54,412 bases of DNA, filler included, from Bipalium vagum (GCA_037834085.1; 3 parts of 3 records of this genome joined end to end with filler, not necessarily neighbours in it); one strand, 5' to 3'. Shown: positions 16,640-54,026, numbered from the whole stretch's first letter. Made by a program: numbers and translations. Notes: generated from the sequence alone by a model not told the origin.

Positions 16640-16752
16640 AAGCCGATTTATTAAGTTTTTTATTGATGAAAACACTTTTAAAATATTTATGAATATTAAT
16701 TTTTCGGATTAAATTAAAACAAACAATTGGCGATAATAAATTATAAGCTTAC

Positions 16753-16949: not shown

Positions 16950-17022
16950 CTAAATGCAATATATATCTTATCTTTACTAAAAGAAGACATTCCAATAAAG
17001 TTGATTTTCGCTAGTTACATCA

Positions 17023-17194: not shown

Positions 17195-17280
17195 GTCTTG
17201 TGTTAATTGGCTCTCCTGTTGTTTTGATTTCGTGTTTCATCAGTTTCGTGCATCCAATATCCCACGAATCTAGCCCTACC
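17195..17280 (-). mobile_element. Gypsy pre-RT fragment
   Basis: LDSWDIGCTKLMKHEIKTTGEPINTR, homologous to the DIGC...KHHMQTRGEPINLKP segment at about 24475-24545. Confidence 0.7.
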
Positions 17281-17299
17281 TGATAGGTCCATTGCTTGA

Positions 17300-20030
17300 A
17301 TAGAGTGGTATTTTTCTACTAACGTTGAGTGAGGTATACCACCTAATCTCAGTGTGATTGCTTGGTTTCATACATGAATGTGAAAATTTTCATGTTTAAA
17401 TGTTGTTTCCTTAATATGGGAATGATATCTTTAAGATATTTAATGTCTGGGTTTCTAATGTTGTATATGTACGCGTTTTTCGGTGCTTAGAAATTTACAA
17501 TAATTGGGTATGGCTGCTACTTCTAGTCTTATGCTATTATGAAAGAATAAATCCTCGTGGTTGTTGATTAGTTTTACACATTCTTTGTAAGGGGGTTTTT
17601 GATACTGAACGATGTGTATCATGACCTTTTCATTACTATTGGGTAGGTACTGACTTAGGTGTATTTATAAATTTTTTGTAATGTGGTCTTGTATAACTTG
17701 TTTGGATGATGCAGAGACGTTTTGTGGGAGGGCATTGTGGTATTTGACTGTGGTTGAACATTTGGAGGGTTTTGTGGTCAATCCACGTTTTTGCATTGAA
17801 TTCTTTGATTCAAGAACTTGGCTCATTTCTATAAAAAATATAAATATATTTTGTCGTAACACCAGTCTATATTCAAAATCGTATATCTTGGTGTTAACAT
17901 TTACTTTAAAATATAACATAGAAACATGGTAACTTTAATAAGATACCTGTTTCATACTGTAGTTGCTATAAATCAGTTGATTCGTATACAACTGATGCAA
18001 CTCTTGAAGATATTTCACTTCTTATACACTAATTTTTACATTTTCTTTTAATCATATATTTTATTAAATAAAAGGAAAAAAATGAAATAACAACAAAGAC
18101 ATAAAAGTTGTAATTACAATAAGTGAAAGGAAAGAGCGATTTGACCGGGAATCAAATCAAGGATCAGATTTTTCATAATTTCATTATTATTTTGAAATTT
18201 TCTATTTATTTGTTCAACAAAGATATGGTTTTTGAATCGTTTTACAGTTGGATCTTTATGAGTATCCAAGATTTTATTTAATCGATCAATTGACATTATT
18301 CGGGTTGATTCATTTGTATAAATCATAAAGGATGTTAATACCGAATCGATTAACTCCCACTAATTTTTCATTCGGAGTTTGTTTTCTCCACTTTACGGTA
18401 TAATTACTTGATACTAAGTCTGTGAGGGTAATACTGTTTTTATTTTTATCCAGGATACCACAAAAAAATCCTCTATATTTATTAGGACAGTAGAGTATAC
18501 AAATAATTCTTTCTGATTGATGGGTTAGATAAGACTAAGATCGTTCACCATGAGATATTTTCATAGGAATCGTTATGCTTTTAAGCTGAATCTTCTTTTG
18601 TATTTTACAATGATGAAAAGTGTTATATTCGTAAATTGTAATGGTTACTTTGTATTTAAGGGTACTGTTTAAATCTCCTAGAATAAAGAATCGTATGTCA
18701 GGGTATACATCTGATGATAAAAAAGGAATTTATCAGCACTTATTATCATTTTAATATCCACTGAGGTATTTGGATTGAATATAATAGCTATTGCTGTTTT
18801 AGCTGGGATGATTGAGATGTTAGTAAAACATCTATTAATAATCAATGTTGTAATGTTATCAATTAATAAAAAGAATAATAAACAAAGTAATAATTTACTG
18901 GATCGTAAATTATACCTAGGTGTATTATTTGGTAATTCCACTGATGATGCCTGTTGAATTTTAGTAATATTATCAAATGACTTACTATCAGTCTTTCCTT
19001 TAGAATCAGAATCGATTTTTTACATCGGTTCATATGAATTAATTCGGGTTCTTTGCTGGGTTTCTTGGAATTTTGTAATAGAAGATTTTTGTCGAAGATC
19101 TTTTTGATGATATGGTGGCCTTTAAATGTTCTGCTCAATTTCGGTGTCTGACCTTTTTTAATGGTTGGGTTTTCCACCATAACTTGATCACCGATTGTTA
19201 ATTTAAGATTTTTGTCTTTTTATCATAAGATTTTTTCATTTTTTCCTGATTACATTTTATATTGAGACCTGCTGTTAGCCATGCCTCCTGCATGTGTTCT
19301 TTCATTAACGTCACATAATCTGGTTCCTCCATGTATTGACTTATAGGCTTCTGAAATATTAAATCAATTGGCATATTGGTATTGTGCAAATAAATGAGGT
19401 AGAACGGCGTATATCGCGTTCCCAAATGCACCTCATTCCTATTAGCGAATAAACATGAGGCTATGTGTATATCCCAATCGTTTTGTTGCTGATTAACGTT
19501 GAAAGATAACAAACTGCTAACGTGTAGTTGAATCTCTCCACTAGGCCATCTGTTTGAGAGTGATAAGGTGTGGTTCACTCATAAATTCTCTTCCTCTATC
19601 GGTAAGTAACTTTCTCGAAACTCCATACCGAAAAACAATTTGCTCAACAAAAATCTTTGAAATTGTTTCAGCTTTATGATTTGGTATTGGAAAGGCTTTT
19701 TTGTCAAATAATCGCTCATTACTAAAATATAAATGTTACCTGAGATGGTTTTCAGTAGTGGACCGACGATGTCCATAGCGATCATCTCCATTGGAGCTGG
19801 GGTACTGGCAGTGGCTTTAATGGTGCTTTCATTTTTTGACCAGTATTATTTCTAGTTTGACAAATTTTACAAGTAGTACACCATTTCTTGATTTCCTTAG
19901 CCATGTTAGGCCAATAATATTTTTGAGAAATTCTTGGTTTTGTTTTTCTATGCGATAAATGACCACCTAGTGTACCATCATGATATTGTAACAATACTGA
20001 TTCTCGTAAAATTTGGGGGACAAATATAAC
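17300..20030 (-). mobile_element. Ty3/Gypsy remnant: integrase followed by a decayed accessory env-like region
   Basis: HHCC zinc finger (YHDGTLGGHL...CKIC), core MDIVGPL, and a GPY/F-like GDQVMV...KLSRTFKG. This is followed by RYNLR plus hydrophobic LLLCLLFFLLI and a TM-like stretch near 18050-18120. Confidence 0.85.
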
Positions 20031-21387: not shown

Positions 21388-22393
21388 TGTGCAACTTCTA
21401 TTTTGGACCAATTTCTAAAATGGGCCACTTCTATAATCGGACCAAACTCCATATTTGGACCAATAATTTTTACTTATCATATTTCTCGATATTTTCATAT
21501 AAAAAATAAAATTCTTGGTCCAAAAATGTGTTTAAAAATTAAAAAATTTGTTTTAATAATATTTTGATATATAACATTTTCAAAATCAGGAATGAGTAAA
21601 ACATTATCATATGAAAAAAAAATAGTATTGCCAAGCAAATCCCCAATAAAAAGCTTCCCAGCGAATGCTATGCAAGAAATATAAAACTAGCAAGTCAACA
21701 ATCCAAAGAATTTATACTGAAATCGGAATACATCCTTTAAAAATTCAGGAACAGACTTTGACAGTACTATTTTAGAAATGTCTCAAAGGTTACGTGAGAG
21801 AAACCTCCCGATAAATGGTACGACATTAAAAGGAATCTATTTAATGTAACAAAAAATTAAATAGAATTGATTTCAAAGCATCGACAGGCTCGTTGGATAA
21901 ATTTAAGAGGCGGTATAAAATCATTTGAAAAGTTTTATCCGGAGAAACGAAATCAGTTGGTCACTCTCAAACTGAAAACGTCCGAAATATCATGAAAGAA
22001 AAAATTAGTCAATATACAGCTGATAATGTAGATAACTGCGAGAAAACCGCTTTATACTACAGATCAATCAGCAGCAGAAGTTTCGTATTACCACATTATC
22101 TGCCCAAAAAATATAAATCTCTTTTATGATTTTAAAAGTAAGTTCATCATGGATATACGAAAAGAACATGGATTAAAAACTAAAATTACGAATTATTTAA
22201 TTCAAAAACGTTGAAATATATTAGTATTTATTGGACCTGATGTTGTTTTGTTTTAATTTTGTATTATTACATCCATATGAGATCATATAAAACATGTTTT
22301 ATAGCCTTTTTATGTCTTAACTTCTAATATTGGACCAACTTCTAATTTTGGATCACTTTTGAAATTTTGTGGTCTAAAATAGAAGTTGCACTG
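21388..22393 (+). mobile_element. Internally deleted pogo/Tigger element
   Basis: TIRs gtgcaacttctattttggacc / ggtctaaaatagaagttgcactg(TA). Coding remnants FKASTGSLDKFKRRYKI, SGETKSV and NVDNCEKTALYYR (CENP-B HTH and start of DDE_1). Confidence 0.85.
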
Positions 22394-23437
22394 TATTACG
22401 GAGTAAATATACCGTTACCTGATAACGATGATCGATTACAGTTTCACAAAATCCATATTTTTGAACTGGTCTTCCTGTCTGATAGACTTGAAAGTGTTGA
22501 ATTAATTTTTCCTTCTTAAACAGTGGGGAAGCGCAGTGGTCCTGTCCCACCAGTCTTAACCTTCTTCTCTGGTGAAATCTGCTTTTTTCTCGGTGAGCTT
22601 TTCCACTTAATTTTTATTTCTCTCTTTTTTTTGAACAACAACGAGAACTCCCACCCCTCATAATAAAAGGCAACTCGCGAAAACGTTATTGAAAGCGCTC
22701 CATGATATCTTCCGCCTCGAAAGCTTTTCATCTTTGCCAATGCTTTGAAATGTGAAGAACAATGTAAAACTTTCCCAACAAAATTATTCTGCGCTTTTCA
22801 TTGTTCTCTTTAGCCTTTTATCTACAAACGTTACCCTGTAAAATTTGATCTTATACAAAATCTTTTCAAATGGAATTTTAAAAAAAATCTTTCATAAAAT
22901 AAAAAGAGAAAGTTAAACATTTTTAAGATAAAAAACAATGCGATACCCGAAGGAAATTTGTAAAATATTATTTATTTTTTCTCTGTCTTTTGTTTCATTT
23001 AAGCACAATTTTTAGAAAGTTTGTTTTTCTGATTTTTCGTTTTTAATATTTAGTTAATAATAAAAATAATAAAAATTTAATATTATTATTAAATAATAAT
23101 AATAATAATAATAAGATAACTTCTAAACAAAAAAAACACTTTAACAAGTGAGATTTTTAATTAAAATTAAATAATAAAACATTTTTAAAAAATATTCTAC
23201 GTGTAAAAATAATAAATAATAAATATAATAAAATAATAATATTATTATTATTATTTTGAAAATCTATTTCTTTAAAATTATTTAATTTACTTTAAAAGAA
23301 TTAATTGTATTATTATTAACAAAATTTCTTTTTTAAAGTAATTATTTTAAATTTTATTAAATAAATGTAATTTTAAATATAATTTTTTATATTCACATAA
23401 TAATATTATTATTATTTATTAGTAATTATGACGAAAA

Positions 23438-23701
23438 AAAAAATATAAAACTCTTTTATGATTTTAAATGGAAGTTCATAATAGATATACGAAAATAAAA
23501 TGGATTAAAAACTGAAATTATGGATTATTTAATTCAAAAACGTTGAAATATATTATTATTTATTGGACTTGATGTTGTTTTGTTTTAATTTCGATTATTA
23601 CATCTATATAAGTTCATATAAAATATGTTTTTATAGTCTTTTTATGTCTTAACCTCTAATATTGGACCAACTTCTATTTTTGGACAACTTTTGAAATTTT
23701 G
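23438..23701 (+). repeat. Second copy of the 3' part of the pogo element (matches about 22107-22370)
   Basis: Near-identical direct repeat of about 260 bp (ctcttttatgattttaaa ... tttgaaattttg). Confidence 0.85.
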
Positions 23702-23899
23702 TTTACGTTAGGCACAATATAAAAATCCAAAAATTAGAAATCAGTTTAAATACTCACATTTATAAGTTATCATTTTTAAGAATTTCATCATTTTTATAAA
23801 ATTTTAAATGAATTAATTCTATAATGAAAATAATGATGCTGAAAGGTTTGGTTGGATTGCAGATTGGTTAACAGCAGATGAACAGAAAACAAGGAGTCC

Positions 23900-26719
23900 G
23901 AAAATAAGAAAATGATTATATTCTCAAAACACACCAATGCTGATATGCTTTCAAGAATTAAGTGCGATATGTGTAATCAATGTCAAATGCACCACAAAGA
24001 TCCGAAGACAGAGAAAATAAATACAAGGCAGATAAATCAGATGGTGAAAATAGGTAGATGTAAATTGCAAGCCGGTTAAAGGAAAAAAAATATTCTGGAA
24101 GAAAATGTTACGAAATTTCGAATGGAAAAAGATGTAGTGAAAACAAGAGAAAGAATGATTTGGATCCCAAAAGAAAAGAGAACATCTATGATCAAAGAAA
24201 GAGTAGCAAATGAGTCAAAACTGGTAAACTTTACAGTAGTAGAGGAAATCACACCGGATTTAATCGGCAAAATAAATCTCCAGAAGGTATTCGGATTTAG
24301 GTTGGTTAAAGAGAATGCCGGGCAGATCAAAACTGATGGAAAGGTAAGAGAAGAATCATATATGTGTAATATTGAAGGGAAGTTTGAAAATGAAGTTAAT
24401 GAACAGGCGTGACAAGCAACAAAAGACTGGTACAGATAATAAAAGAGAACGAGGGTGTTTTCATGGCCAGCATATTGGATGTCCGTTGCACTCATTTAGC
24501 GAAACACCATATGCAAACAAGAGGGGAACCAATTAATCTTAAGCCGTTTTGACAGCCAATGAACCTAGAGGAGAAGATAAAAGAGACAGTCAAGAACCTA
24601 TACGACAATGGAATTAATAAAAAATTCAATTCACCTTGGAATACACCGTTGATTTGCGTATGGAAGGAGAAGAAAGATACCCGCATATGTCTAGATTTTA
24701 GGCAGTTAAATGCAGTGACAGAAAGGCAGGCATTTCCGATGCCAAATGTTGATGACATGTTGGATGCCTTAGATGGGGCAAAGTATTTCAGTTTTATTGA
24801 TTTAGGTAATGCCTATTATCACGTGGAATTAGAGGAGACATCAAAGAACAAGACAGGTTTTTCTACCAAAGAAGGACAATATTGTTTTAATAAGATTCCC
24901 TTTGGAATAGCGGCAGTTCCAGGCACATTTCAGGAGATAATGACAAAGGTCGTCGGTGGTATAAAAGGAGCAATGGTCTATCTGGACGACATATTAGTTT
25001 TTACGGGGACTGAAAGTGAGCATTATAAGGTTCTGAACGAAGTACTGAGAGGAGTGCGCGAAACTAGACTACGGATAAATCCAGAAAAGTGTTATTTGCT
25101 GAAAAAGGAAATAAAGTTCTTGGGTCATGTGGTGAGTAAAAAGGGGGTAAAAACATATCCTTCAAAGTTGGAGGCGATTATAAATTTCGAAAGGCCAAAA
25201 TGTGTAAATGGATTGAGAAGCTTTTTAGGAATCTGTAACTATTATAGAAGATTTATAAAGGAATACTCGAAAAGATCTAAGCCCTTGGAGAGAGCGTGTG
25301 AAAAGAGTGAGAAAAAATTAATATGGACACTGGAGATGGAAGAAGCGTTCAAGGAGATGAAAAAAGCATTAACACCAAGTCCCGTATTGTGTTTCCCTGA
25401 TATTAAGAAGGAATTTATTCTAGATACAGATGCGAGCTTTGATTCAATAGGAGCGGTTCTGTCTCAACTGGACGAAAATGGAAAGGAACGAGTAATATCA
25501 TATGGCTCTCACGCCATGAGAAGCCATGAAATTAGCTACTGTATTACTCGAAAGGAATTGCTGTCCATTTATTACTTTTGTAATCACTTTCAATATTATT
25601 TATACGGAAGGAGTTTCAGACTGATAAAGGACCATTAAGCAATTACCTTCATGATGAGTATGAAGAAGCGGATCACGTCGCAATTCCAAACGTGGATTAA
25701 TTACTTAAGTAGTCTTGACATAAAGTTCGAATACAGGAGGGGTTCGATACATACGAACATATATTTGTTATCTAGCCCAAGATGCAAAACATGTAGTCAC
25801 TGCCAATTAGCGCATGAGGAGGCGAAGAAGGAAGAGATGAAAGTCAGGATGTTTGATGCAATAGGCACAGAAGATGTTAACGAGGCAGAGAAGAACTTGA
25901 TATGGCATGTTCATAGATTGTTGGCTAATGCAGGTACTGAGAAGGTCCTGGAATATGTGAAGGGAAAACATGATATAACTGGTTTGCGGAATAAAGTACG
26001 GAGGGTATTGTCAGAATGCGAAGCGTGTGAGAAGCATAAAGTGGTTACATCAACGACAAAAGATGCCACAATGACATTGGATAAAATCCAAATGTTTGAG
26101 AACATTTATATCGATATTTGCGGTCCATTAACGGAAACCAGATGAAAGAAAAAGTACATCATAGGCATCATAGATCAGTACAGTAAATATTTCTGTTTAA
26201 CTACGGTTGCAAGGTAGGACGAAGAGACAATTATGGAGGAGATAAAAAAAAGTTTGGCTTACAAGTTTGGTAGTCCCAAGACTATCAATGTGGATTGCGC
26301 AAAACGAAGGTCCATATCGAATCCAAAGAAAAATACATGGGAGACGGTATTTGATAGAACACGCAGAAGGAAGAATTCTGGATAGGAACGTTGAGAAGTT
26401 AAAAAAATTCTTGAGAGGAGGATATAAGGAGTGATTCGAAGAATTAATTTGTTTGAATTTGTTTAAATAAGGACCTCACGCCATGATTAACAATTATTAA
26501 ATGTTTTTAATTTAAAGTTTTTAAAAATTATAACGTTACGCTTTTAAAATTTTTAACTAAATATTTTAAATAAATGTTGGTTAATTTTAAAAAAGTAAAT
26601 GATTTAATTTTAATAAAAGGTGAGGTCCAAGTTTGAAAAGTTTGTTTGGTTAATCGGATTTAATGAAATATATTATTATTATTGCTTCGAATTTGAATTT
26701 TTATTTAAAAATGACTACA
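23900..26719 (+). mobile_element. Ty3/Gypsy LTR retrotransposon remnant (RT-RNaseH-partial integrase, PPT, probable 3' LTR)
   Basis: ORF 24559-25638 has SPWNTPL, RICLDFRQLN, YLDD, FLGH, LDTDAS and RKELL. The integrase part has HRLLANAG...CEAC and YIDICGPL. A purine tract gagaggagga at about 26413-26422 precedes an AT-rich segment ending ACTACA at 26719. Confidence 0.92.
24559..25638 (+). pseudogene. Gypsy reverse transcriptase/RNase H open segment (359 aa)
   Basis: Intact YLDD and RNase H DAS motifs; flanked by in-frame stops and frameshifts. Confidence 0.9.
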
Positions 26720-27934
26720 CAAGAATATAACTGTAATAATACTTAAACAAATTTCCCATTCTTAATAAATCAATATGTTGGTTTTTATATATCAAAATAC
26801 ATTTTAATTAAAATTAGATAAAAATAAATATTTATATTAAATTTACTACAAATTTAAAATTTAAACAAGGCACAATAAAAAAATTAAAAAATTAGAAATC
26901 AGTTTAAATACTCACAATTGCATTTAAATATATTTTTCCTTCATTACAGGTGTGTTCCAAATTGTGCCCCACTTCATCAAAAATCTCGTTTAAGTTTTTT
27001 TTACATAGGAGACTTATTTAAAAATATTAATTTTTGTGTCCTATTTAAGAGCACTTGTAAAGATAAACAAAATAAGTTCCCGATTTTTAAACAAAAATAT
27101 TCAATATTCATCCCGTTTTTCAAGTTAAAATTAAAAATATTGAAGGCCTTGAAACCCTTAGCCTATTTAACAAATATATAAAATTATGAGGAGCTTTGAA
27201 AGCCCTAAACATATCGCAAAACTAGGTGGGATTGACAGTCTTAAAAATAGGGAGACATTTAATGTCCGTCATCTTTATAAAAATAAATAAAAAGTAGAGG
27301 GCTTTCAAAGAGGAACCCATATTAAAAATAAATTTAAAAAGATTATTTGCACCATTTGAAATGGTGGCCCTTAAAAAATTAAAATAAATTTTGTAAAGGG
27401 ATTACTAATAGTAACCCAACATTTTTGTGAATTGCAAATAATAGGGTTAATAGCTCGATAAATATTTTATTGGACTATTTTCAAATATCCACTAAAATTA
27501 TAAATAAATAAATAAATATTTGCAGCTAAGAAATATATGAACAGTCGGTTAAGTTAAGTCACCGTTTGTACAGATGACATGATTCTTTGTGTTACAATCT
27601 TGATTATTTGAAGAGCGTTATGGGCCGTTGCACCATTTCGTTGAAATGAAATCGTAGAAATCTTTATGTTCGCTTTCCGGAGCGGAAAGAAAACTTTGCA
27701 TTGTACTGTAGCCATCTATAACCCATACCAAACAGTTACAAGAAAGGGGTGTAATGAACGTTGGTCCAAAGTCTCAGAATTATATGTACCCCATAGTTTT
27801 GGTCACTCTGCAGTTTTTTTTATTTACAAACCCACTCTGATGAAAATGTGCCTTGTCACTCATCAATAAATTTGTCAAAAGATATTGGTCAATGGCAGTG
27901 AGATTTGGAGTAATGTAAACGCAAGGTTATACTA

Positions 27935-32131: not shown

Positions 32132-34049
32132 TCAATTTCTCTTGAGTCTCCAAATATCTTCCCCTTTTTGAAGACTTTTGTCCTCAAAAGGTGGCATGCG
32201 AAACATCAAGAGTTTTCCATCGGGTGTTCGGCCAATAAATCCGAGGACATCTACCGAGGCTCCATGGGGCGAAATGACTTCAGTTGGGAGATTGGTTGCA
32301 TTGTTGATAAGAATTTCCTTTTTGATTGGTTGAATGTTGGCAGCGGGGCATCTATATTCATTGAATGAGAGGGAGGCATTGTGTGAAAGGATTGGAAGCG
32401 ACCTCAACATTTTTACGATTGATGGTTTGTGTTTGAACTGACGATACTGTGGAAGAATCAGTTTGCGTGAACTGAGGAGTGATATATTTTTAGCCTTTTG
32501 CAGAAGTGTGGATATTCGGGGACGTTTTCTTTCCGATTTTTTTGTTTCAGTGCTGACGGAAACTGTTGACACAGTGGGTCCTAGTTTAATAGGCAACGGA
32601 ATTGCTGAGGTTTCTGGGACTTCAAAATATACATCATCGTCGTCATCTAGTGAGAGAACACAATCTTTGTAATCCGATTGATTGAAATTGGAAGACGACG
32701 CGACAGAGTGTACGTCGAAATGAGGTTCGGACGGTGATAGAGGAGGCGGGGCGCTAGGAATACGAGTATGGGGTAGTGGTTCTTCTGGAACTCGAAAATG
32801 TGGTGGTACTTTTGCCAAAAATCTGTTCTGAGTCCGCATAATATCATTAAGAATTTTTTTACCACGACCACTTCCACTAGTGAATGGCTGGTAGGATAAT
32901 GGAGGAAACGGAGGAGGTTTATTTAAGATAGTTTCATTGCTGTTGTGAAGAGGGGTTTCATCACACATCAATGTTAATTCACTGGCTAATGAGGTTTCAA
33001 TTTTGAACCAGACTTCTCTGAGCATATGTGTGTGTTGAACACATTGTACTTTGCGTCATTCAGGTCCTAATTTAGTGGTTGACGCCAATTCTGGAATTTT
33101 AAATTTACTGGCAATTTGATTTAATCTCAATACTGCGTTAGGGAGAAGTTTCATGGAATCCCGCAATTGTGGTATATATTGAAAATCAATATATCCATCT
33201 ATATGCTGTGTGGGGATTGCGCACATTGTCAAGAAATATTCAACTTGATTTCCTATGAGTTTTTTGTTGTGGACGCATTCTTTTATGCTTTCGAGTGCTG
33301 TTGGTTCATCCATGCCATTGACAAAACGGTATCCGATATTCCTGTTTGGGCTACATTGGGTTTAAAGCGATTGTGAGGCGAGATAATGGTCATAAGTACA
33401 TCCTTACCCAGATAATTCATAAGGTGTACTGCCTGCAATACATGCTCTGAAATAAGATGACCAGACTTAAATGTAGTGACATCTACAAAAATAGCCTTTC
33501 GTTGAAGTGCCACTTGATAAGGTAGCTTATATTTGGGCATATAATATGGATTTCGGGCACGTAGGGAACGATAGATTTCATCATTATCATGAAGTAGGAT
33601 AGTTGATGGGATATAATTTGTACTAAGTATGTCCTCAATAACCAAAATGGTATTGAGCTTAGTAGTTTCAAAGCAAAGGGTGCGACTTCTTTTGACCAAA
33701 TTTTCTAAGTGCACCGAAAAGAATTTTTCAATAGTAATAGGAGCAGGGACGCCTCCGACACGCAGAATCACAGAGTGATTGCATACGTTGAAATAAAATG
33801 TTTCTTTGGGATAAATAGTTGTCTTCATGTAGGGAATTATGTTGGGTAGATAAAAATAAGATGGTTGCATCACTTGGTGTATGTAAAAAGTTCGTTCGCC
33901 AGTCGATTGAAATTTGCACGAATTTAGGATTTCTGCAGTTTCCATGGTAAGAGTGGGTAAAGGCATGACGCCTTGTCGAGCTTCCAAATGTTTCATACAT
34001 TCTATGTATGGGAATTTGTTGAATTGCTTGACCCAGATAACGGCTTCGG
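32132..34049 (-). pseudogene. Intronless orphan reading frame (more than 630 codons, 5'-truncated by the linker), broken by one frameshift and one TGA
   Basis: The frame is open from the contig end through the 237-aa ORF, then shifts -1 into the 85-aa ORF. That ORF is in frame with the 297-aa ORF across a single TGA (33056-33058). GC is clearly higher than the flanks. No recognised domain. Confidence 0.7.
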
Positions 34050-34149
34050 NNNNNNNNNNNNNNNNNNNNNNNNNNNNNNNNNNNNNNNNNNNNTTAATTA
34101 ATTAANNNNNNNNNNNNNNNNNNNNNNNNNNNNNNNNNNNNNNNNNNNN
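34050..34149. other. Artificial contig linker (44N-TTAATTAATTAA-44N)
   Basis: Same structure as 17095-17194. Confidence 0.95.
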
Positions 34150-40960: not shown

Positions 40961-41624
40961 TAGTATACCAAAAACTAATATTACTAAATATCTTTCGAAC
41001 TTTATATCACTTCTTCTTCAGTCGTTAATATATGATATTAAGCATTTAAATGCATTAAATTATGGTATAATTTTTAATTAATATTAATTAATTAACTATT
41101 ATAAATAATAATTATGATTGTTTTTAAAAAAATTAATTTCAAGTAACCAGAATTTGTTAAAATATTTTAATTAAATATAATTTTTAATTAAAATATTTAT
41201 AAAATTCTTGTTAAAATTATTATTATTCATTTTAAGATAATTATTATACATATTATAACTATATTTNNNNNNNNNNNNNNNNNNNNNNNNNNNNNNNNNN
41301 NNNNNNNNNNNNNNNNNNNNNNNNNNNNNNNNNNNNNNNNNNNNNNNNNNNNNNNNNNNNNNNNNNNNNNNNNNNNNNNNNNNNNNNNNNNNNNNNNNNA
41401 TACAATATTTTTAATACATTATACTATCAATTAATGAATTAAAATGTATGATAGATTAAATATAGAGCTATAAAATTTATAGTGTCCAATCAAAAGGATA
41501 ATAAATTTGAAATAAATCGATATATTAATTAGTTAATAAATAACTGACCAATGAAAGCAGTTTGCGAAAATAATATATAATATTTATATATATAAGTGGA
41601 TTATGTACAATTTTATTTATATCA

Positions 41625-44600
41625 ATGTTTATCGGTAAAAGCCATTTGATTTCAACGGGTATATTTTAACTTTAAAAGACCTTTCTGAACTCAATATTTC
41701 AGTTTTGGTCAATTGTTTTCTTCTTTGGTCCTGCAACTACATTTATGAGAAAATAAATATCGAAGTTGAAAAGCTCAAGAACATCAGCTTTACACTATAC
41801 ATTCTTAATTCGCCTGGTATAATACTATACGTTACCGATTGCCAAAAATACAAATCCGTCATCGAAATCAAAGAAAACGGTGGGGAAAACTATTTCCGAT
41901 TAATTGGCAAGACCAAGATTTATTCAATGAAAATGGAAAGGTTATGTTAGTAAAACATTTCGATGTTGCATTTGATAAGGGTTTTTAAGGCAACCTTCAC
42001 TATTGTCCAATCAATTATCTCAATTTATCCATACATATACAAAGGAGATCTCTGGATATCGTTTGTAACAGGAAAAGGAACATTCTTACCGAAGGGAATA
42101 AAGTTAACACGACATGTTTATTTTATTACTTTTCTGTTATGATTATAAATATTAATATATAAAATATAATATTATATTTCGAAAAAGAAAAAAATATTTG
42201 GACCTCAAAATATGTTATACATTATCGCTTATGTGGAAGAACATCCGTTTCCATTTCATCTAGTAAACGGTACGAATCAAAAATGACAAAGCTTCGATTA
42301 CAAAAACACCCTAGTAATATCAGAATTAAACTCTGAAATGGTCACAATTATGAAGTTGCAATCACTTTTTGGAGTTTTTCAAAGAGAAATGTTACCATTG
42401 TTACCACTGTCCAAGTAAATTGATTTGATCATGTATGATTGATCATTCTATTCTTTAATGAGATTGATGTATTACACAAATACCTGCAGTGACTGTAACT
42501 CACTTATTTCTCCAAATGATAATAATACTTTGCATTCCTTGTTATCAGGTTTTTGTAGATTTCTCAGGATTTTACAAAACACCTTTAGAGCATTAAGGTG
42601 TTAGAGATTAATTGCTGCAAGGATTGATTTGAGCGAATAAAAATGCATTAGGTGATTGTGAATATTTTGAATAGCAATAATGTCATTTAATAACAAACAT
42701 GTGTACTTTTGTTATTGTGAAAACATTTCGAATTTTTCGACTAATACATATTGAGTAAATAATTTAAACCAATAATAAATGTTTAATTAACTTTTTTATA
42801 TATTATCTATTTATTGATTATATAATTAATAATTTTATTTTTTATAGAATTTTAATTAATTATTTTCTTTATTAATATTGTTTTATTGATTTCATCTTAA
42901 TACTTAAGTGCATAGTAAATATAATTTTAATTTTAATTTAAATCTATGATGTCATTTTTTATTATTTAAACAAAATTTCAAAAAATTTTTTGAATTTAAC
43001 AGGTAACTTTAATTCAAAAAAATTTTAAAAAGTGTTAAAATTTTAAAGTATACAGGTTTTCAATTAACACAGGTGACAATAACTTATATTTACAGTGTAC
43101 GGAATTAAATGTTCAAATAAAAGAGGTGTTCAGATAACAAAGGTGTTCATTTATGCAGGTTTCACTGTATTAGATAATTTATTTTTAATAACTCCATTAT
43201 TCATTTATTTTAATTTTATTTATTATTATTATGATTATATATATTTTGTTTTAATAACTTAATTTTATTAAAAAAATAACACGAAATATCCGACATAGAT
43301 GAATTTGCCGAATTTCCACAGCATTATTCTCTCTTCCAAAAGACCTTGCATTTTTGGATTGGCAATATTGGCTCAGTCGAAGGATTCTATAAATTAATAA
43401 ACGAGTCCTTTAAAAGGCAAATCATTGGCTGTCTCGACACATTCTTTGTTAATGGTAAAGAAATCTACCTTAAAAAGGCCCCAGGTTACTTTTCTTCACA
43501 CTGCGACCATTCCTATGTGACCCATACAATAAATACAAAATCTTGTTCCAGGTATTGGCATAATTTCACCTGTCAATTTTATAAAGTCGAAGAAAGTCAA
43601 GAAGTTTTGAAAAAGGGTTAGGAATATATTTGTTATATTAAATTATTTATTAACATTTTCCCTTTATAAATTCCGTTACCCTTAACTCGGTATATAAAAA
43701 ATTAATAGTTTTTTGAAATTATAAAGAAAGTTTTAAAAATTATTTTTCAAAAAAAATTAACATTTCAAATATTGATAATAATAATATTATTTTATATTAT
43801 TATTATCTATTATTCTATCATTATTATACTATTATCATTACACCATTATTATTATACTATTATTTAAAGTTAAAATATGAAAATTAATTTATCTGGCCTA
43901 TAATATTATTAATTAAAGAAATAATATAATATTTTAATTAATAAAATATTTACGTTTTAATAATATATCATTTTATACAGAAATATTTATAAAGAAAGAA
44001 AATTTCTAAAATAACTCAATTTTCATTTAAAATTCATAAAAAATATGTCTAAATATATTTTTAGCCCAATGATTCAATAAATATAATATGCTGTACGGAA
44101 ATTTAACGAACCAATTATCATTAATTATAAACAATTTGATTGGTTGTCATGAAAATTAATTTAGTCAAACAATTTTCACATGACCCACCAACAGTTAATT
44201 ATATTATTACAGATTTGTCTTTGTACAAAAATACAAATCTCTCCTTTCTGAGAAATGGTTCAGACGAAGACTTTATCTTCTTGAAGTTGACTTGGAAGCA
44301 GTTTTCCATAGACAATTACTGCCTCATGGAATTGAAATTCCGGTAAAATTTTATCTAAAAAATATTTTTCAATTCACTCTTAGGAATACGTCTTTCATTT
44401 TTCACGTCTTTCAGTTGCACGTAGAGATGGTACTCTTGAGGAGGAACGATAGTACAATTCTCGAACGAATATTACTGCACAAAATATCAAATAATTCCTT
44501 AAATGAACTGTCCGTTAATTTGAGTAATGGTAGTCTTGTTGGCCTCAGAGTATGAAAACCATAAACATTGTTCATGTTAACCGAAACGATTATTGTAGGT

Positions 44601-44716
44601 CACGGACAGAAGGTTCCTGACGGAATGTCAACATATCATAGACGAAGAATTGGAATTGTTGAGGATTGGGTTTGTGGAGCACGAAAATAATTGCAAAGCT
44701 TTTTCTGGAGAAATGA
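41625..44716 (+). CDS. Predicted multi-exon secreted/surface glycoprotein with divergent laminin-G-like domains (paralogue 1; 3' end uncertain)
   Basis: Predicted exons are 41625-41658, 41703-41945, 41990-42115, 43299-43616, 44213-44342, 44384-44549 and 44599 to about 44716. All junctions are GT-AG and phase-compatible (micro-introns of 44, 44, 41 and 49 nt). The N-terminus is signal-like (MFIGKSHLISTVLVNCFLLWSC). It has FWIGN...IIGCLDTFFVNG and LRIGF...FSGEM motifs and many NxS/T sequons. Confidence 0.72.
42990..43168 (+). mobile_element. pogo/Tigger-type right terminus in intron 3 of paralogue 1
   Basis: Subterminal acaggt/agaggt repeats ending caggtttcactg-TA. Confidence 0.55.
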
Positions 44717-45149
44717 GCTAATTTTAATTCCTTTTTTGTACAATATCAGTTTTTTTAGGTTTCAAATATGACATTTCTCAGTTTAGATTGAGTGGGCCAG
44801 GACAACGTGGAAATGTAAATTTTGTTTATTATGATTTTTAGTGACTGCCACGGTATCTGTATTGATTCAATTCATTAAGTTTATGGTAATTGAGTAGTTT
44901 AAAAGTGCTTCCCTTTATTTAATATTTAAACAAATCAATCTTTTATTTTAATATTTATATAATTATTTTTAAAATTTATTTAACTTTTAACTGACGATTG
45001 TGTTAAATTCATTACTTGAAAATTTATTTATTCCTTTATATTATTGATTTGCAAAACCAATTTGGGTTAAAAAACAAGGTTGATCACAAGTAATGAGCTG
45101 AAAAACGAAGGAGAAATACATAACAACCAAACATGATAATATGAACTTA

Positions 45150-45720
45150 TTAGGTTGTAAAGAAATTAATGACGGTTTATGAAACTTAATTTTTGCAGTA
45201 TGAATTAATAAAGGAAAATTTGTTTTATTAATATAAATTTGTTTTCATATTGAAGCGTACATTTCAAAAAAGGTATTTCAACAAAATAATTTAATAAATA
45301 ATTAATATTTATAATTTTGTAGGCATTTGAATAATGATTGACGACTTCCAAATTAGAGCACTTTTCTTATATGAATTCAAAATGGGTGGTCATGCTGCAA
45401 AAACCGCTCGAAATATCGTTCGCATTTTTGGAGAAGGTACCACTAGCGAACGTAGCGCTCAACGCTGGTTCCAGAGTTTTAAGGATGGAGATGAAGACAT
45501 TCAAGATAAAGATGGTCGTGGGCGAAGATCTTCCATCTCCAATGAAGATTTGAAACCACTGGTTGAGAGTGATCCACGTACCACTGTTCGAGAAATTAGT
45601 CGTAAGGTATGCGTTTCAGCTATGACTGTTTTGAACCATCTTTGCCAAATAGGAAAGTCAAAGAAATTGGACAAATGGATTCCGCACAATTTAATAAAAC
45701 TCAAAATTCTAATAAAATAA
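45150..45720 (+). mobile_element. 5' half of a mariner (cecropia-like)
   Basis: TA-ttaggttgtaaagaaatt TIR. ORF MIDDFQIRALFLYEFKMG...RWFQSFKDGD...KKLDKWIPHNL, then truncated. Confidence 0.88.
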
Positions 45721-46049
45721 CCAATTAAAATAAGACAGTAAATTTATATTTTAAATAATTCTTCATTCTTTAAATATTTGTCCATTAGCTGAGACAAGAT
45801 TCCAATTCAGTTCCATAAATTCCCCCTCAGCCATTTTGACTTATCTTTTTAAAGTTCACAGATGGAATTATTACTCTGGGTATTTGCATCAGTTTCCTTA
45901 TTAACAGAATTATCCTTAATTCACAGTACGATGTTGATAATTCTTGTCATTGGACAATTTACAACAGGCCTTCCACTCATCACTCATCATATATGAACGC
46001 TCTTTTACTAAAAATCTTATAAAAATTACGCAAAAAACAAATTTATTTA

Positions 46050-46580
46050 ATTATTAAAACAGTCAAATTCCTCATCCGATCTCGCCTTAAAGTTATCAAA
46101 CAAATCATATATAGAACCTGCAATGTCACACTCGGTCTCATGTTCAGATCCATCACTATCCTTGTCTTGAGATATCACAGTTGTTTGTATTTCGTGTGGA
46201 TATTTGCATATTTGACGGCTATTAATCCATTAATGCAATCTAGTGTTACTTCTTTCCAACTTTCGTCGATCCGTTGGCATATTTCATCGTAAGAAGCACT
46301 TTTCATTGATCCAGACTTGATAAAGTTATGATATCCATTGACCACCCAATCTTCCCATTTCGCAAGTATTTTTTCTTTTTTAAATCTATTGACGCTTAGT
46401 TCCCATGACTTCAATTTGCTTGTGAATATGTTTTCACCTTTTCTTTGATTTCTTTTGGTACATGAGGTTTTGCAGATTCATAAATTGCCATATTTGTTGG
46501 CATGGTTTACCGCTTCTAGTTTTCGATGACCTGAATAAGATTTTTGAGTTTTATTTGTATCCATTGCTATCCATTGCATC
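46050..46580 (-). mobile_element. pogo-family transposase C-terminal remnant
   Basis: SVNRFK...WEDWVVNGYHNFIKSGSMKSASYDEICQRIDESWKEV, followed by an acidic tail. Confidence 0.7.
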
Positions 46581-48579
46581 CATTTGGAAATTATATTGAT
46601 TTAATATTCCAACAAATGTGATTAAAAGTGATATGCATTAATTTTTATAAAAATTCATGTTACGGCTTATGCATGAGTTCGGCAGATAAGCAAGAGTTTG
46701 CGATAATAGGTAATAGAGTTGAACTACGTCTATCTTTAACTGGTATATTTTTATCGATTATCATTAATGACGATTATTTATATAACTGTAATTGGTCAGA
46801 TTACAAATTTGATTACATAATTGAGTTAGATTAAAAACATGACATACAAAATTAAAAGAAATTGCAAAAATAACGAAGCTAAATGTATGTAAGAGAACCA
46901 CCCAGTTGCTTCTAGACGAAATTGGTGTCCGACAGCTGTAGCAGGTTCGTTCTGAAATTTCTAACAGCCGAGATGACAGCTAAACAAAAAATGGCTTGTG
47001 AAAGGAATCTTAGTTTTCTGGATGTTGTTGGACCAATTTTTTATGGAATATCATAACTACAGACGAGACATGAGACCTATACATGAATATGTATTGTTAA
47101 TGAAAACTTTGTTTAGTGATCTTCATTTTTCTCGTACAATCTAAGTACCTTTTAGCCTTACCACGTATCTAACATTATTAAAATTTTAATTTTCGATGAA
47201 TTATAATATTTTTTAATGAACTTAGTTGACCCAACCTGTAAATGTGAAGGAAAATTTCAATTGGAAATTATTGGTTTTGGTTCCTTCCTCAATCACCATT
47301 GTCTTGGCAATGGTCATCTTTATTTCGTACAAAGCTTCAAAGGTAAACCGTTCTAAAATGTAGTACTTTTTTCCAATTTTTTAAAAAATTTAAAATGCTT
47401 TTAGAAATATTTATGAAATTCAACCCATTCCGCCACAATCTCAATTCGAAGACTCTCCGTACTATGAATATATAGATTGAAATGTCTTCTTTTCCTCCTT
47501 CGTTCGTTATTCATAATATTATGAATTTATTGTCACAAATATGCTTAAGGATACCGCAACATTTTGTAAAAATTGCATCATGCAGGATGATTATTAAGAA
47601 AGTCCAGACATATTTATTAATAAATTATTTTATTTACTGTTTAATTCCACAAAGCCCGGTCAAAGATTTCTCTTAGGTTAACGGAAAATGAAGAACGGTT
47701 TCTCACAATCTTCGTAACGTAACCGACAAGCGCTGAAGCATGTCATCCTTTCATTTCTCTCTCAAAAGGAATGTCAACATGATTTTCTTCGCGATGTAAA
47801 TTATAAGAAGAATGCATTTTCTCGGGAACAACGTCTTTTTCATTAGAAACCATAACATCACCCTTATATTATGTAAGAAATGGCTTACTAATAATAATTA
47901 TTAACTGGTGATATGTGAAGAATAATAAAAGAATATATGCAAAATAAAAATAGAAAATTTCGTAAACTGAAATAATGTTAAATGTAAAATAAAAATAAAA
48001 TAAATTAAATAATAATAAAAAAATTAATTTTTAAAAAGATAATAAAATTAAGAATAATAGCAATAATAATAAATAATAATAATAATAATAAATTAAATTA
48101 AATAAAGATGATAAACTGAAGAATAATCAAAATAATAAGAAATAATTTTTAAAAAATAATTAATATAATAAGAATAATTATAAAAATAATTTAAATAATT
48201 AAAAAAAAATAATGATAATAATATTATTATTATTTGTAAATAAATTAAATAATGATAATATATTAATTAATTATTAAATAAATAATAATAATATAGCATA
48301 ATAAAATAATACAAAAGTATAAACTTAAAATAAGTATGAAATAAAAAAGAAGAAATAAAATATGAATGTAACGAGTAAAAGGTACAGTTTTAGTACATTT
48401 ATTTTAATTTAATATTAACTAGAAATAGTTTTAAAATATTTAGAATAAAAGAATATTAAAAGATTAATATTACTGGTTGAAAATAAATATAAATTATTGA
48501 AGAAAAAATCTTTTTAAAAAAAGTTATTTGCAGATTTAATTTTTTGTTTCACAAATTATTATTTCACGAAGCAAACTTA

Positions 48580-49700
48580 GTAATTTCATAAGAACCTTCT
48601 TATTGGAATTATGTTTCTTTCTTCGTTGTGGTTCGATTTTAATTGACGCATTATTATCAATTTCAAATTCTCTGCGGTCTCGTTGATAAACTTGACTTTT
48701 ATCTCAATGCATTTCCATTTTTGCTGCATCAAAGCACTCTTTAAATTTTTTCCTCTATCTGTTAAAATGCTCATAGGTCTACAATTTTATAAATCCAGTT
48801 ATTCAGGATGGCCTTGAAAATAGATTGGTTATCATTCTTGTAGGCGCACTTAGACTCACCAATTTGCCAAAACGATCGATGATGACGATTAAGTACTTGT
48901 ATAAATCTGATAATCTTGACAAGCCTTCAGCATTACTGTGGTCTTCTCCTTTCTGTACTTTAATTCAAAGTTACATTCCGACAGATTATCCAGCCAAGCT
49001 TGAAATTGCAAATTAATCGGATTTTTTGTAGAATGCATAAAACGCAAGCTTTATGATCTGTATGAGCAATGAAACGTTCACAGTACGAATATTGTTTGAA
49101 ATGAAGAACAAATTCATACAGTGCTAATAGCTCTTTTCTGCTTTCACAATATTCCAGCTCATTAGTTGATAAATGTTGAGACCCATAAGCATAATCACAT
49201 CCGTCCTGTTTTCCTTAATCTGACTAAAGACTGTTCGAATACCTCCAAACTTGCATCAGCGTCAAGAACAAATACTGGATTTTTTCAAAGAAAATCTAGA
49301 ACTGAAGCTTTGCACAACTTATCCTCCATTCCTGAAAATTCTTCTGATATTTTTCAGTCCATTAAAACTGCGATCCACCGCTGATATAGCTGCGTATAAT
49401 GAAGCCGCTATGATAGCATATTTATCTATGAAACGTCGATAAAAATTAGTCAAACCTAAATATGGTCGCAGCTGGGCAAGAAATCCTGGTTGTTCATTTT
49501 GTTTGTCCAGTACTACTGACAGTGTGACCCAAAACAAAAGTTCCCATTGATGGAATTTGTATTTAGATGGATTGTGTTTTAGTCCAGAGTTTGCAATGCG
49601 ACGAGAAACGTCTTCCATAATCATGTGTTCTTTCTCCGAAGAGCTATGAATCAAGATATCCAATAACTCAATTGAAAAGTAGACCCTCTAATAATACCTT
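48580..49700 (-). mobile_element. Degraded Ty3/Gypsy pol (RT-RNaseH-integrase order)
   Basis: QLRPYLGLTNFYRRFIDKYAIIAASL, ADAS, YLIVIIDRFGK and ILTDRGKN. Confidence 0.78.
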
Positions 49701-50107
49701 ACCCAAAAACAGTAGCTTTTTTTCTGTTGCGGCCTCAGCTAGAGATATTTTTTCATTTATTTATAAGCCTGATTGTCACATAGTTCTTAAAACACGTTTC
49801 TTTCTTTCGAAACTTTTAAATTCCAATCGCATTTTATATATTTAAGACTGGTTGCTTTAATGTTTGTTTCTCGGATAATTAATCGACCTTTTCCATGAGA
49901 CAGATTTTTTATCGATCCACACTTCTTTTTTTCGATTCCAATATACTGGAAATAATAATGAATATAATTCACAGACATTCTGAGTTTATTTCCTATTAAT
50001 CTGATGGACTTGCACATACATCTGTAGACTTCAGTCATACATTTCTCTTTTTCTGTCATCCTGTCACTGATTGACATTTCTATTGTGTAAGTTAAAAATT
50101 ATGCTTA

Positions 50108-50993
50108 ACAGGTGTAACAAAAATTTTGATGAAAATAATGGAGTCATAAATAAACAAAAGTCATATAAATTTAAATAAAAAGTAGTTTTATTAAGAAATA
50201 CAGAACATCAAGTTGACATAACATTTATAATAAAACAAAAATTGGATCACTGTCTTCCATTTTCCATAAAATTGGTTTTGTTTTTACCCTTCATGCTTTG
50301 CAAGATGCTAACATTAAACTTTCATTTTTCTTGCAATTCTGAACTGCATAGACCTTGCGTTTTTGGCATCCCATCAGTTTTATATACTTCTTTACTCAAC
50401 CAGACCCAAACTTTTTATTTTAGCAGCTGCCTGTGGAAGGCTGCCGTTTTTTGGAACGAAATGCACATTTTTAATTTCAATCAATCGGTCATTGCATTTG
50501 AGTAATGCATCTGACCAAAAAGAATGTTATTATAATGGTATACTCTTATGAAGGAAGTTAATTTTGTGAGACACTTATTCTTAAAAGTATCAGAATTTAT
50601 TGCTTCACCTTTTGCTATTCTAAAAAGGAGAATTGAAATACCTATCTCTTACAAGACCTTCTGCCATCGACCAGGCAAGGTGAAAATCCAAACCTTTAAA
50701 ATTACTTAAGTGCTTTAAACTAAGATTTTAAAAACGTACAAAACAAGCGAAGTGGCTTTCCAAACAACCCAATATTACAAAAATTAGCCGTTTTGGCATG
50801 CTTCCAACCAATTGATATATATCTTTTCCTAATTCTAATTTTACAGTCATTTCAAATAATGAACGTAGCGTAAATATTTATTATTATAATATAAGCAATA
50901 TTAATTTATTTAAACAAATTCTGAGATATTAAAAAATATCAAAATTGTTTTAAAATGAGCTCCAAATTTTCACAAAACTCTTGTTACACCCGT
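50108..50993 (-). mobile_element. Tc1-like TIR element, internally deleted
   Basis: TA-flanked TIRs acaggtgtaacaaaaatttt / aaaactcttgttacacccgt; remnant KVWVWLSKEVY. Confidence 0.7.
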
Positions 50994-51165
50994 TATAAAT
51001 ATTTTACATATTTAATGTATTAACCTATCCAAATTTAAAATTTTATTCTTCTAATTAAAAATTATTTAATAAATTTAGTTTGAATTTGGTGCAAAAATAA
51101 ATTTGTGTCAACAAAGTATTTGAATTATTTAAACAAATGTCATTTAAATTGGAGGTATTGATACA

Positions 51166-51987
51166 TTAGGTTGCAAACTAATTTTTCGTGAATTTAATGT
51201 ATTACATATTTTGTTTAAACAGATTATATTTATTTTTTTAAAAAATAGATTTATTTGAAATCTATTTTACTTATTAACAAAATTATATCAATTATTTTGA
51301 TATATCATTTAATTTTTTAAAAAACCCACAGGTTTGAAATGAAATGCCAAAATTGTGTCTATACAAACTTAAAGTATAGAAAGATGAGTGGCTTTTGGTT
51401 GCGCAGGTACATCCAGAATTAAACCAGAATTGTATCCAAAAAATTATGATCTTCGTTTAGTGAAAATGAGATTGTCTGATACACTGGGAAATTATTCCAA
51501 AAGGTAAGGCAGTCGATAAGCTCCTATGCATAAACCAATTGCATCGAGTAAACAACATTATTAAAGTGAAATACCAGTATAAGCGAGTCAAAGTGATTCT
51601 TCTTCGTGTTAACGCTAGGTTGCACACAGCAAATATTACCAAAACCATCCTCCAAGAGCTCGATTTGGAAGTTCTCTCATATCCTGTATATTCTACGGAT
51701 CTTGCGACAACTGACTTTTTTCTCTTCCTCTCGCTGTCAAACCAAATTAAAAGTATTAATTTTCAGAAAGAAGATGATCTTAAAATTTGAATCACCAATT
51801 TCTTTCAGAAAAAATCTAGCAATTTCTGGAATAAAGGTTTCGACAAATTGTTGGAAGCCTTCGGTTCTAAACAATGACGGAAATTATGTTATAAAATGAT
51901 TTTCGCTATTATTCGTTAATAAACCATGCTTTAATTACTTCATTTTATATATTATAAAAAATCACGAAAAAGTCTGTTACAACCTAA
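51166..51987 (+). mobile_element. Internally deleted mariner
   Basis: TIRs ttaggttgcaaactaatttttcgtga / tcacgaaaaagtctgttacaacctaa; LLRVNARLH...YPVYSTDLATTDFFLF. Confidence 0.85.
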
Positions 51988-52288
51988 CACACATAAACCA
52001 AAATTAAACAGAATTTGTAAAATAGAATTTTGAGAAGAAAAAGAGCTCACTTTATTAAGGTATCAAATATTTTCAGTTTTCTAAACATATTTTTCATGAT
52101 GAAATTTTGTTTTATACAAAAATGCACTTTACACCGGATTAAACGTTAACTCAACACACGTTCGAAATTGACTAATTATATTTATATTATTATTAATACC
52201 AATAAACAACGGACGAATACAAGTGACTTGCAAAACCCCTAAACATTTCATATAACAGAGTCAATTTCGTACCGTATTAGTGATATTC

Positions 52289-53879
52289 ATGATTTGTTTT
52301 AATTATCATTTTATCACAATGGGTATGTTTTGATGTCCTTTTAAAGATGTCCCATGATCGCTCTGTCTTAGTTTTTATCAATTATTTTACCTATTGTTCC
52401 TGTAATTATATCTACACAAAAATTGATAAAGACATCCAAGTGGTGGAAACGATACATTTTCGGATATACATTCTTAATTTCCCTGGCATTATTATGTACT
52501 TTACGGATGCCATATATTTTAGAGCGGTGATTAAAATTGAAGAAATAAACGGAGAGAATTTTTTAATGTTGATCGGGCAGGACCGATATTACCAGAATAA
52601 AATGGCAAACTTGTGTTAGTAGACATTTATGGTATAACCATTTTCAAGGTTTCATTAAGGTAATCTTTTCAATTGTTCTCTCAATTATGTGAATATTGAT
52701 ATAAAAATATGGAGATTTAAAATAGAAGTCGTTTGCAACAACAAAAGCCACCAAATTTCGGAGGATGATAAGATTCACAAAAAAAGTTTATATTTTTTCA
52801 CCTTAAAATAAAAATATTTTATTATTTATTATTTATTATATATAATATATGAGTAGTTAAACATATTTTAAAATTTGTATAAAGTGTCCAATATTTAAAG
52901 GTCTTTTTTATTATATTTTTATAAAATTTTTTTAAGAATTACAAAATCGCGAACTTATTATAAATTGTTTTCACATGTTAAAATATTATAAGAAAGGCAC
53001 TATATATTAATTTATTGAATTTGTGTAAGTTTATCAAGTTTGTCAATTATTATTTTTATTGGTATTAATAAATCCTTTAAAAATTTCTTTTTTATATTTT
53101 CTGATCTTTATGGTGATAGGTGAGTGTATTGTGCAGAAACTAATTTGTTTTTATATTTCAAATCTTAATCTGTCGGGGTTCAAATTTGAGAGTTGTTGAC
53201 TATCTTATGACCAATTGCGTGAGATTTAAGAAAATTATTGATGTTATTTTGTGCTTTCTTTGTTGTTCTGTTGAAAAACAATAAATTATATTGTCTTATT
53301 GCTTGCTTCAGTTATTTTCCAGAATGGTAATTACTGAACCTAACATCGATAAAGTGAATGAATCAATATATGATGTTAACTATACATAATAAATCAATAA
53401 TATTTTTCTTAATTAGTCAATTTTTTTATTATTATTCTGAAATGTCACTTCAAGAAATTTTTGTCAAACAACTTTTCCTGATGTTTAAATATTTTTTAAA
53501 AAATTAAACTCTTTTTTTTTAAATCATTTACATTTTATTTAAATATATGATAAATTATTTAACATAGATATGTTTTTGGAGTTTCCGAATCCCTGGGTTT
53601 TTTCCGTTAATACCATGCACTTTTGGATGGGCAATGTTGGACCAGCAGATGGGTTCAGTATCAAACATCACATTTCCTTTAAAAACCAGTCTTTTGGTTG
53701 TCTGGATCTATTAAAGGTGGATAATAAAAGAGTCACTTTTAAAAAGGTCATAGGTTACTTTTCCTCATATTGTGACCATTTTTGTAAAAATTATGAATTA
53801 AACCAAATGTATTGTCCCATAAAGTCCCATAATTGCAGCATTTCCAAAATAGAAGATGATAAGCCATATTTTAAAAACG
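52289..53879 (+). CDS. Paralogue 2 of the laminin-G-like secreted/surface protein gene (probably continues beyond the window)
   Basis: Predicted exons are 52289-52322, 52372-52614, 52660-52785 and 53568-53879, with lengths 34/243/126/312 versus 34/243/126/318 in paralogue 1. Phases are the same, micro-introns are 49 and 45 nt, and it has FWMGN...SFGCLDLLKVDN plus conserved Cys residues. Confidence 0.75.
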
Positions 53880-54026
53880 GTTTGATATTTCCAATTTTAT
53901 TTATTTTTATTTTCATATTCACAATCATTAATATTTATTACTCTAAAAGGTCAAGTAACTTAACCTTTATTATTTTAAAATGACGAAAACAGTAAATAGA
54001 AGTTTAAAGAGTATTTTATGAATATA

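Follow-up and report, generated by a model that had tools for sequence, protein, structure and literature searches.

A tandem pair of paralogous genes predicted to encode diverged laminin-G-like surface proteins

The 54,412-nucleotide stretch of assembly GCA_037834085.1 analysed here (called the window; three records joined by filler) contains two tandem gene copies, copy 1 and copy 2, which by their sequence are real paralogous genes under purifying selection. Splicing of both copies was predicted. Copy 1 probably encodes a diverged type I membrane protein of adhesion or recognition with a LamG-EGF-LamG layout (LamG, laminin G), a reading to which we assign a probability of about 0.6. The product would be neurexin-like without being classed as a neurexin. 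Its predicted layout is a signal peptide, a LamG-like domain (domain 1), a degenerate EGF-like linker, a second LamG-like domain (domain 2), a stalk, a transmembrane helix and a short tail (Table 1).

Exon structure and divergence of the two copies

The start codons were placed at 41625 (copy 1) and 52289 (copy 2), 10,664 bp apart. All GT/GC-AG pairs around the first three introns were enumerated, and models open for at least 200 amino acids were kept. Copy 2 gave exactly one open model, with exons of 34, 243 and 126 nt and introns of 49, 45 and 782 nt. Copy 1 gave four, one of which had identical 34/243/126-nt exons, with introns of 44, 44 and 1183 nt. The first three introns of both copies are GT-AG and phase 1, as seen directly in copy 1 and as deduced for copy 2, whose exons have identical sizes. 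Exon 4 measures 318 nt in copy 1 and 312 nt in copy 2.

The enumeration thus confirmed the central claim of a preliminary description of this DNA, namely two copies at this spacing with matching exon lengths and splice phases. The frames stayed open after the predicted splicing, as it had stated, without a frameshift or stop in 238 codons, and the conserved motifs that it quoted (YILNxPGII, FW[IM]GN, GCL and GYFSSxCDH) were found in the copies. Its four-exon gene had to be given up: at least seven exons, and probably nine, make up copy 1. The 312-nt length of exon 4 of copy 2 holds if the donor at 53880 is used, but without it the reading frame stays open as far as a stop at 53983. The emphasis on micro-introns was an overstatement, the predicted introns of 41-49 nt being close to the short class of planarian introns: the available text of PMC13594981 gives a short-intron peak of 45-85 bp for planarian genes, on which scale 41-49 nt would be normal or slightly short, provided that the animal is a planarian. 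The accessible part of a Dugesia preprint (10.64898/2025.12.11.693146) holds no finer figure for short introns. That annotation based on open reading frames (ORFs) would miss the genes was likewise overstated, since every intron-split gene escapes ORF scans.

The two products are identical at 98 of 238 aligned residues (41%). Identity is 46% in exon 2 (37/80 residues, in agreement with the 45-50% previously counted by hand), 37% in exon 3 (15/41) and 40% in exon 4. Nucleotide identities at the three codon positions are 0.61, 0.68 and 0.49, third positions being the most diverged. The dN/dS comparison of the paralogues, one of the checks that had been proposed, gave a nonsynonymous divergence (dN) of 0.49 and a synonymous divergence (dS) of 1.19 by the Nei-Gojobori method, a ratio of about 0.41; dS is probably an underestimate because of AT bias. 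The pN/pS ratio was 0.60 (bootstrap 95% interval 0.49-0.75), and none of 2,000 replicates reached 1 or more.

Both copies are preceded by a similar block of 120 nt, whose local alignment score of 72.5 was reached by none of 1,000 shuffles and by none of 232 stretches of the window matched in GC content. In-frame stops lie upstream of the start in both copies. The upstream likeness together with these stops supports the assigned start codons, and the likeness indicates that the duplication took in upstream DNA. The block, kept between the paralogues despite near-saturated synonymous sites, is a candidate regulatory element. An upstream coding exon was rejected because of the in-frame stops and because no third-position pattern was apparent by eye.

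Domain identity and relatives

LamG domains (PF02210, PF00054) are concanavalin-A-like beta-sandwiches of about 180 residues and carry a C-terminal motif consisting of a hydrophobic residue and G, then GC[ILM], then N; a closing Cys lies 10-30 residues beyond it. Domain 1 matches this motif, the G, the G-C and the closing C being invariant in 6/6 aligned sequences (see below), and domain 2 has the motif without the Cys. The order and spacing of elements in domain 1 also follow the LamG scheme: a hydrophobic strand followed by G-I-I-[LM]-Y, an alternating strand pair, hydrophobic-G, GC[L]xxxxV[ND] and the closing Cys. In domain 2 the order is alternating strand pair, LRIG, FSGEM. A full ordered LamG pattern, composed after the sequence had been seen, fitted copy 1 and failed on copy 2; in each case it fitted none of 3,000 shuffles. 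From these motifs we infer a LamG fold.

The preliminary description had called the product a secreted or surface glycoprotein with a LamG fold. Supported is a beta-rich product that contains Cys residues and N-x-S/T sites in exons 1-4 (five and four) and has a hydrophobic N-terminus, a plausible signal peptide in both copies (9-residue hydropathy 2.3 and 1.7). The LamG call fits the motifs, but found no confirmation in profile, PDB and fold searches. No LamG match was obtained from Pfam or PDB profile and sequence searches or from the Atlas, with single exons and alignments of 2-6 sequences as queries, and the Atlas returned nothing for exon 2. The structure comparison that had been suggested was run on two low-confidence fragment models, with predicted local distance difference test (pLDDT) values of 32 and 52, and LamG was in none of the lists. 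The exon 2 model (mean pLDDT 52) is a five-strand beta meander. A local hhalign comparison with a bacterial proxy LamG profile gave a probability of 0.2. PDB rows for a scorpion toxin (E 0.85), GST (E 0.05) and an arabinanase (E 1.2) were taken as chance. EGF was likewise without a Pfam match, and the window copies carry an EGF-like remnant alone.

These blank or noise-level results, and the failure of the ordered pattern on copy 2, weigh against the LamG-EGF-LamG interpretation. They would be expected if the genes are real and exported but their domains have another beta-rich fold or form a family of their own, the LamG likeness arising from generic alternating strands and a GC motif. We consider this unlikely: the LamG tests were weak in their queries, models and bacterial proxy, the residues invariant in six sequences coincide with the LamG C-terminal motif and closing disulfide, and the second domain repeats the same motif order.

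The six sequences come from a profile search with both exon 4 translations, which gave four matches at E <=0.001 among 1.84 billion representatives. Three, independent of one another, were unnamed proteins on ENA contigs of 0.8-1.5 kb (E 6e-8 to 7e-6). The fourth, P0004, a bacterial protein with FN3 repeats, was attributed to chance similarity of repeats and left out. The alignment comprised the two copies, the three relatives and P0005, a cluster mate of P0001. It has ten invariant columns, including G-N-x-G, G-C and a Cys 24 residues on; the three relatives keep W[MI]GN.G, Q..GC, an N[GN] turn and, about 24 residues further on, the closing Cys. In P0001 and P0005 the closing Cys is followed by a fuller Cys-rich EGF-like stretch. 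P0003 carries the equivalents of exons 3 and 4 in one frame and in collinear register, though its exon 3 part alone was not significant (266 and 233 of 2,000 shuffles). GNAT clusters suggested for P0003 by the Atlas were rejected, as they share few features and do not fit a Cys-bonded exported protein.

Other searches added no relatives. In word-index searches of longer proteins, 0/11 candidates were relatives with copy 2 exon 4 as query and 0/5,175 with the A4 query; among near-length proteins the A4 query gave 2/356, both of which it already contained. Scans of metagenome contigs (0/130 and 0/437), prokaryote genomes (0/66) and viral contigs (0/587) for a related locus were negative, and PHROGs returned only rows with E 0.08-0.17. 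One sequencing run of unspecified kind contained 96% of the sequence words, which is not evidence of expression. The earlier characterization of the family as lineage-specific and fast-evolving is tentative, three relatives having been found among the 1.84 billion representatives. A literature search that included LamG and neurexin in flatworms found no paper on the gene family; supplementary planarian gene tables may hold it.

Membrane anchor of copy 1 and setting of the locus

Downstream of exon 4, copy 1 continues after an intron of 596 nt. Exons 5-7 are open for 139 codons across introns of 41 and 49 nt, a length reached by 2 of 1,000 Markov nulls. It was also reached at 78 of 3,620 other acceptors, all of them in seven places that belong to gypsy pol, the acetylcholine-receptor exon or one other long ORF. 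Exons 1-9 have 33-41% GC as against 16-31% in the introns of copy 1. A good GT donor lies directly behind exon 8 (39% GC), and its phase gives an open exon 9 (36% GC) across an intron 8 of 2.4 kb. When 263 acceptors between 44860 and 52200 were tested, three opened onto a transmembrane-like stretch, and in two of the three this was the helix of exon 9, the strongest such stretch. The helix region has a weak Pfam match to TMEM154 (E 0.038). Use of the GC donor of intron 7 and the splice link to the transmembrane exon are predicted. The resulting model has 436 codons to the end of exon 9, and with three possible tails the gene would encode about 440-460 amino acids. Five of the eight introns are in phase 1, and phase 1 introns are typical of modular extracellular genes. 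An EGF-like reading of 47226-47342 in another frame was set aside as less likely, as it needs weak donors and gives no anchor.

Table 1. Features of the two gene copies (all on the + strand)
Feature	Coordinates	Length (nt)	Remarks
Copy 1 upstream block	41505..41624	120	Likely proximal promoter or 5' untranslated region, common to copy 2
Copy 1 exon 1	41625..41658	34	Start of likely signal peptide; from splice enumeration
Copy 1 exon 2	41703..41945	243	Rest of signal peptide; first (N-terminal) strands of domain 1
Copy 1 exon 3	41990..42115	126	Middle strands of domain 1
Copy 1 exon 4	43299..43616	318	End of domain 1 (FWIG, GCL, closing Cys) and Cys-poor EGF-like remnant
Copy 1 exon 5	44213..44342	130	Start of domain 2; absent from the preliminary description
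Copy 1 exon 6	44384..44549	166	Follows 41-nt GT-AG intron
Copy 1 exon 7	44599..44716	118	Follows 49-nt GT-AG intron; its 3' end encodes the domain 2 motif FxGxM
Copy 1 intron 7	44717..44758	42	Non-canonical GC donor; stop directly follows if unspliced
Copy 1 putative exon 8	44759..44814	56	Last strand of domain 2 and start of stalk
Copy 1 putative exon 9	47226..47342		Stalk, likely transmembrane helix (19-residue hydropathy 2.77), basic residues
Copy 1 possible cytoplasmic-tail exon	47405..47479		Tyrosine motifs; three tail options in linking to exon 9
Copy 2 upstream block	52169..52288	120	Common to copy 1
Copy 2 exon 1	52289..52322	34	From splice enumeration
Copy 2 exon 2	52372..52614	243	
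Copy 2 exon 3	52660..52785	126	
Copy 2 exon 4	53568..53879	312	If donor 53880 is used
Copy 2 read-through tail	53880..53983		Hydrophobic 19-mer (2.7), basic residues, stop; 17% GC, intron-like

Copy 2 either splices at 53880 to exons past the end of the window or would end in the intron-like hydrophobic tail. No match to exons 5-9 was found in the last 530 nt of the window; with a 596-nt intron 4 as in copy 1, exon 5 of copy 2 can lie past its end. A hydrophobic read-through stretch like that of copy 2 occurred by chance at 3 of 726 comparable AT-rich GT sites, and the homology of the tail to intron 4 of copy 1 was not significant.

A distinctly unlikely alternative is that the products are LamG-like but secreted or truncated. 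Copy 1 would then retain the GC intron and end there at about 380 residues, the hydrophobic exon at 47226 would have nothing to do with the gene, and copy 2 would be a partial duplicate of exons 1-4. The weak context of the GC donor, the stop met when it is not used, the missing exon 5-9 match and the low GC content of the copy 2 tail speak for it. On the other side stand the GC content of exons 8 and 9, the donor in phase between them, the rank of the exon 9 helix among the acceptors tested, and the room left for exon 5 of copy 2. Of the two locations given earlier for the product, secreted or surface, the surface is favoured by the second domain and likely transmembrane helix of copy 1; we consider it more likely that copy 1 is membrane-anchored than that it is secreted.

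The window is AT-rich (17-39% GC per kb), and mariner and gypsy remains were abundant throughout it in Pfam and similarity scans. A match of the duplicated unit to a transposon family had been named as grounds for rejecting the gene pair. The exons carry no transposase or reverse-transcriptase domain in Pfam, though neighbouring elements were detected by it, and only two copies occur in the 54 kb. That the unit is a decayed duplicate or one derived from a transposon, in place of a working gene pair, is hardly credible, for although the mobile remains, a dN/dS that is not very low and the GC donor of copy 1 would suit it, the exons lack transposon domains, the 238 codons are intact despite a dS of about 1.2, splice positions and upstream block are conserved, and relatives exist elsewhere.

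Other elements were seen around the pair. Inside putative intron 8 of copy 1 there is a mariner remnant (Pfam HTH_48), and the DNA between the copies contains remains of both gypsy and mariner elements (45331-45720, 48777-49700 and 51457-51790 for this group). The segment 54025-54412, beginning 145 nt past exon 4 of copy 2, resembles one end of a Tc1/mariner-like element together with the beginning of its coding sequence; its 36-codon ORF had no Pfam match. The 3' part of a nicotinic acetylcholine receptor-type (neurotransmitter-gated channel) gene occupies 10683-17014 (-), with Pfam matches at E 1e-20 and 4e-14 and PDB matches; it marks the DNA as that of an animal. The intron between its two visible exons exceeds 5 kb and contains mariner remains, and its last codons and 3' flank are present as a direct duplicate (9485-9641 / 10586-10744, 74% identical). 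A gypsy-type pol (reverse transcriptase and RNase H in Pfam) at 24553-26145 lies inside the region 22106-26919, near a 266-nt direct repeat (22106-22370 / 23438-23702, 91%) and a 52-nt repeat (23710-23761 / 26868-26919). At 32132-34101 (-) there is an intron-free 2-kb run of 38-39% GC with three long ORF pieces (272, 101 and 307 codons), for which Pfam, PHROGs, PDB and viral contigs gave no match. A decayed second copy, 33-34% identical by tblastx, lies at about 17269-17628 (-), and a pattern of N-run, TTAA-repeat and N-run adjoins both. The run is possibly a mobile or integrated element of unknown type.

Proposed role and comparison with known surface proteins

In the proposed mechanism the signal peptide would export the protein, which would be N-glycosylated and anchored by one helix. 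The two beta-sandwich domains above the membrane would use variable loops to contact a partner, either in the matrix or on an opposing cell, in the manner of one neurexin/Caspr repeat. The paralogue, 41% identical yet selected, would differ in specificity; it would continue past the window end, or stop after domain 1, its anchor then coming from recruited intron 4 sequence. A bolder extension, which we regard as improbable, is a tandemly expanding and rapidly diversifying 'mini-neurexin' family in a flatworm-type lineage, invisible to domain scans and providing a variable code by which cells recognize each other in neural wiring, tell self from non-self or recognize microbes as hosts, or hosts as microbes do, in which an intron can be recruited as transmembrane segment, as copy 2 may show. 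If the LamG-EGF-LamG reading is true, the pair would represent an undescribed, highly diverged surface family, likely in the planarian group, where RNA interference allows direct tests of function, and adhesion-protein inventories made by domain scans would miss such genes.

The predicted order of LamG-like, EGF-like and LamG-like domains, stalk, transmembrane helix and short tail makes copy 1 resemble one neurexin repeat plus anchor. The last neurexin LamG domain lacks the motif Cys, as does domain 2 of copy 1. According to the available text of PMC12414531, three LamG-EGF-LamG repeats characterize alpha-neurexins and a single LamG domain the beta form. In contrast, the copy 1 model shows a single repeat, which carries its own signal peptide, and its EGF-like part keeps two of six Cys; the copies are tandem and diverged. 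Its single repeat differs both from the three repeats and from the single LamG domain with sequence similarity that mark classical neurexins, and profiles of exon 2 or exon 4 gave no PDB neurexin match at E <=10. Neither a PDZ-binding end nor a band 4.1 motif was seen by eye in the three tail options.

In Caspr/CNTNAP/Neurexin IV proteins, four LamG domains are combined with a fibrinogen domain (PMC10084454, available text). Their C-terminal part, as described there, is like copy 1 in its LamG, EGF, LamG, membrane anchor and short tail. Copy 1 has two LamG-like domains instead of four and no band 4.1 motif by eye. The 436-codon model has no room for the fibrinogen-like domain, or for the discoidin domain found in most members, and the support for its start codon from the upstream stops and common block means that the N-terminal Caspr domains are not accommodated.

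Two invertebrate proteins are also comparable. Caenorhabditis elegans BAM-2 spans the membrane and has LamG and EGF-like domains so diverged that InterProScan does not readily detect them (PMC12414531, accessible part), and its relation to other LamG and EGF proteins is described as unresolved in the accessible parts of PMC12414531 and PMC10084454. It is a precedent for LamG/EGF domains that escape InterProScan, likened to copy 1 by description, and differs, as far as those texts go, in being a single nematode gene with a role in axon branching. Planarian PHRED-1, of 2,536 amino acids with 6 LamG domains, 9 EGF domains and an intracellular WD40 part (bioRxiv 10.1101/131789, available portion), is, like the proposed product, a flatworm LamG/EGF transmembrane protein, and by the same portion has no strong homology outside lophotrochozoans. 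Its domains are detectable by scans, whereas the gene described here is far shorter and has no WD40. Diverged neurexin-like proteins such as BAM-2 and PHRED-1, and tandem duplicates of surface proteins, are already known kinds, beside which the pair alone would be a modest addition; its significance would grow if the family is large and polymorphic.

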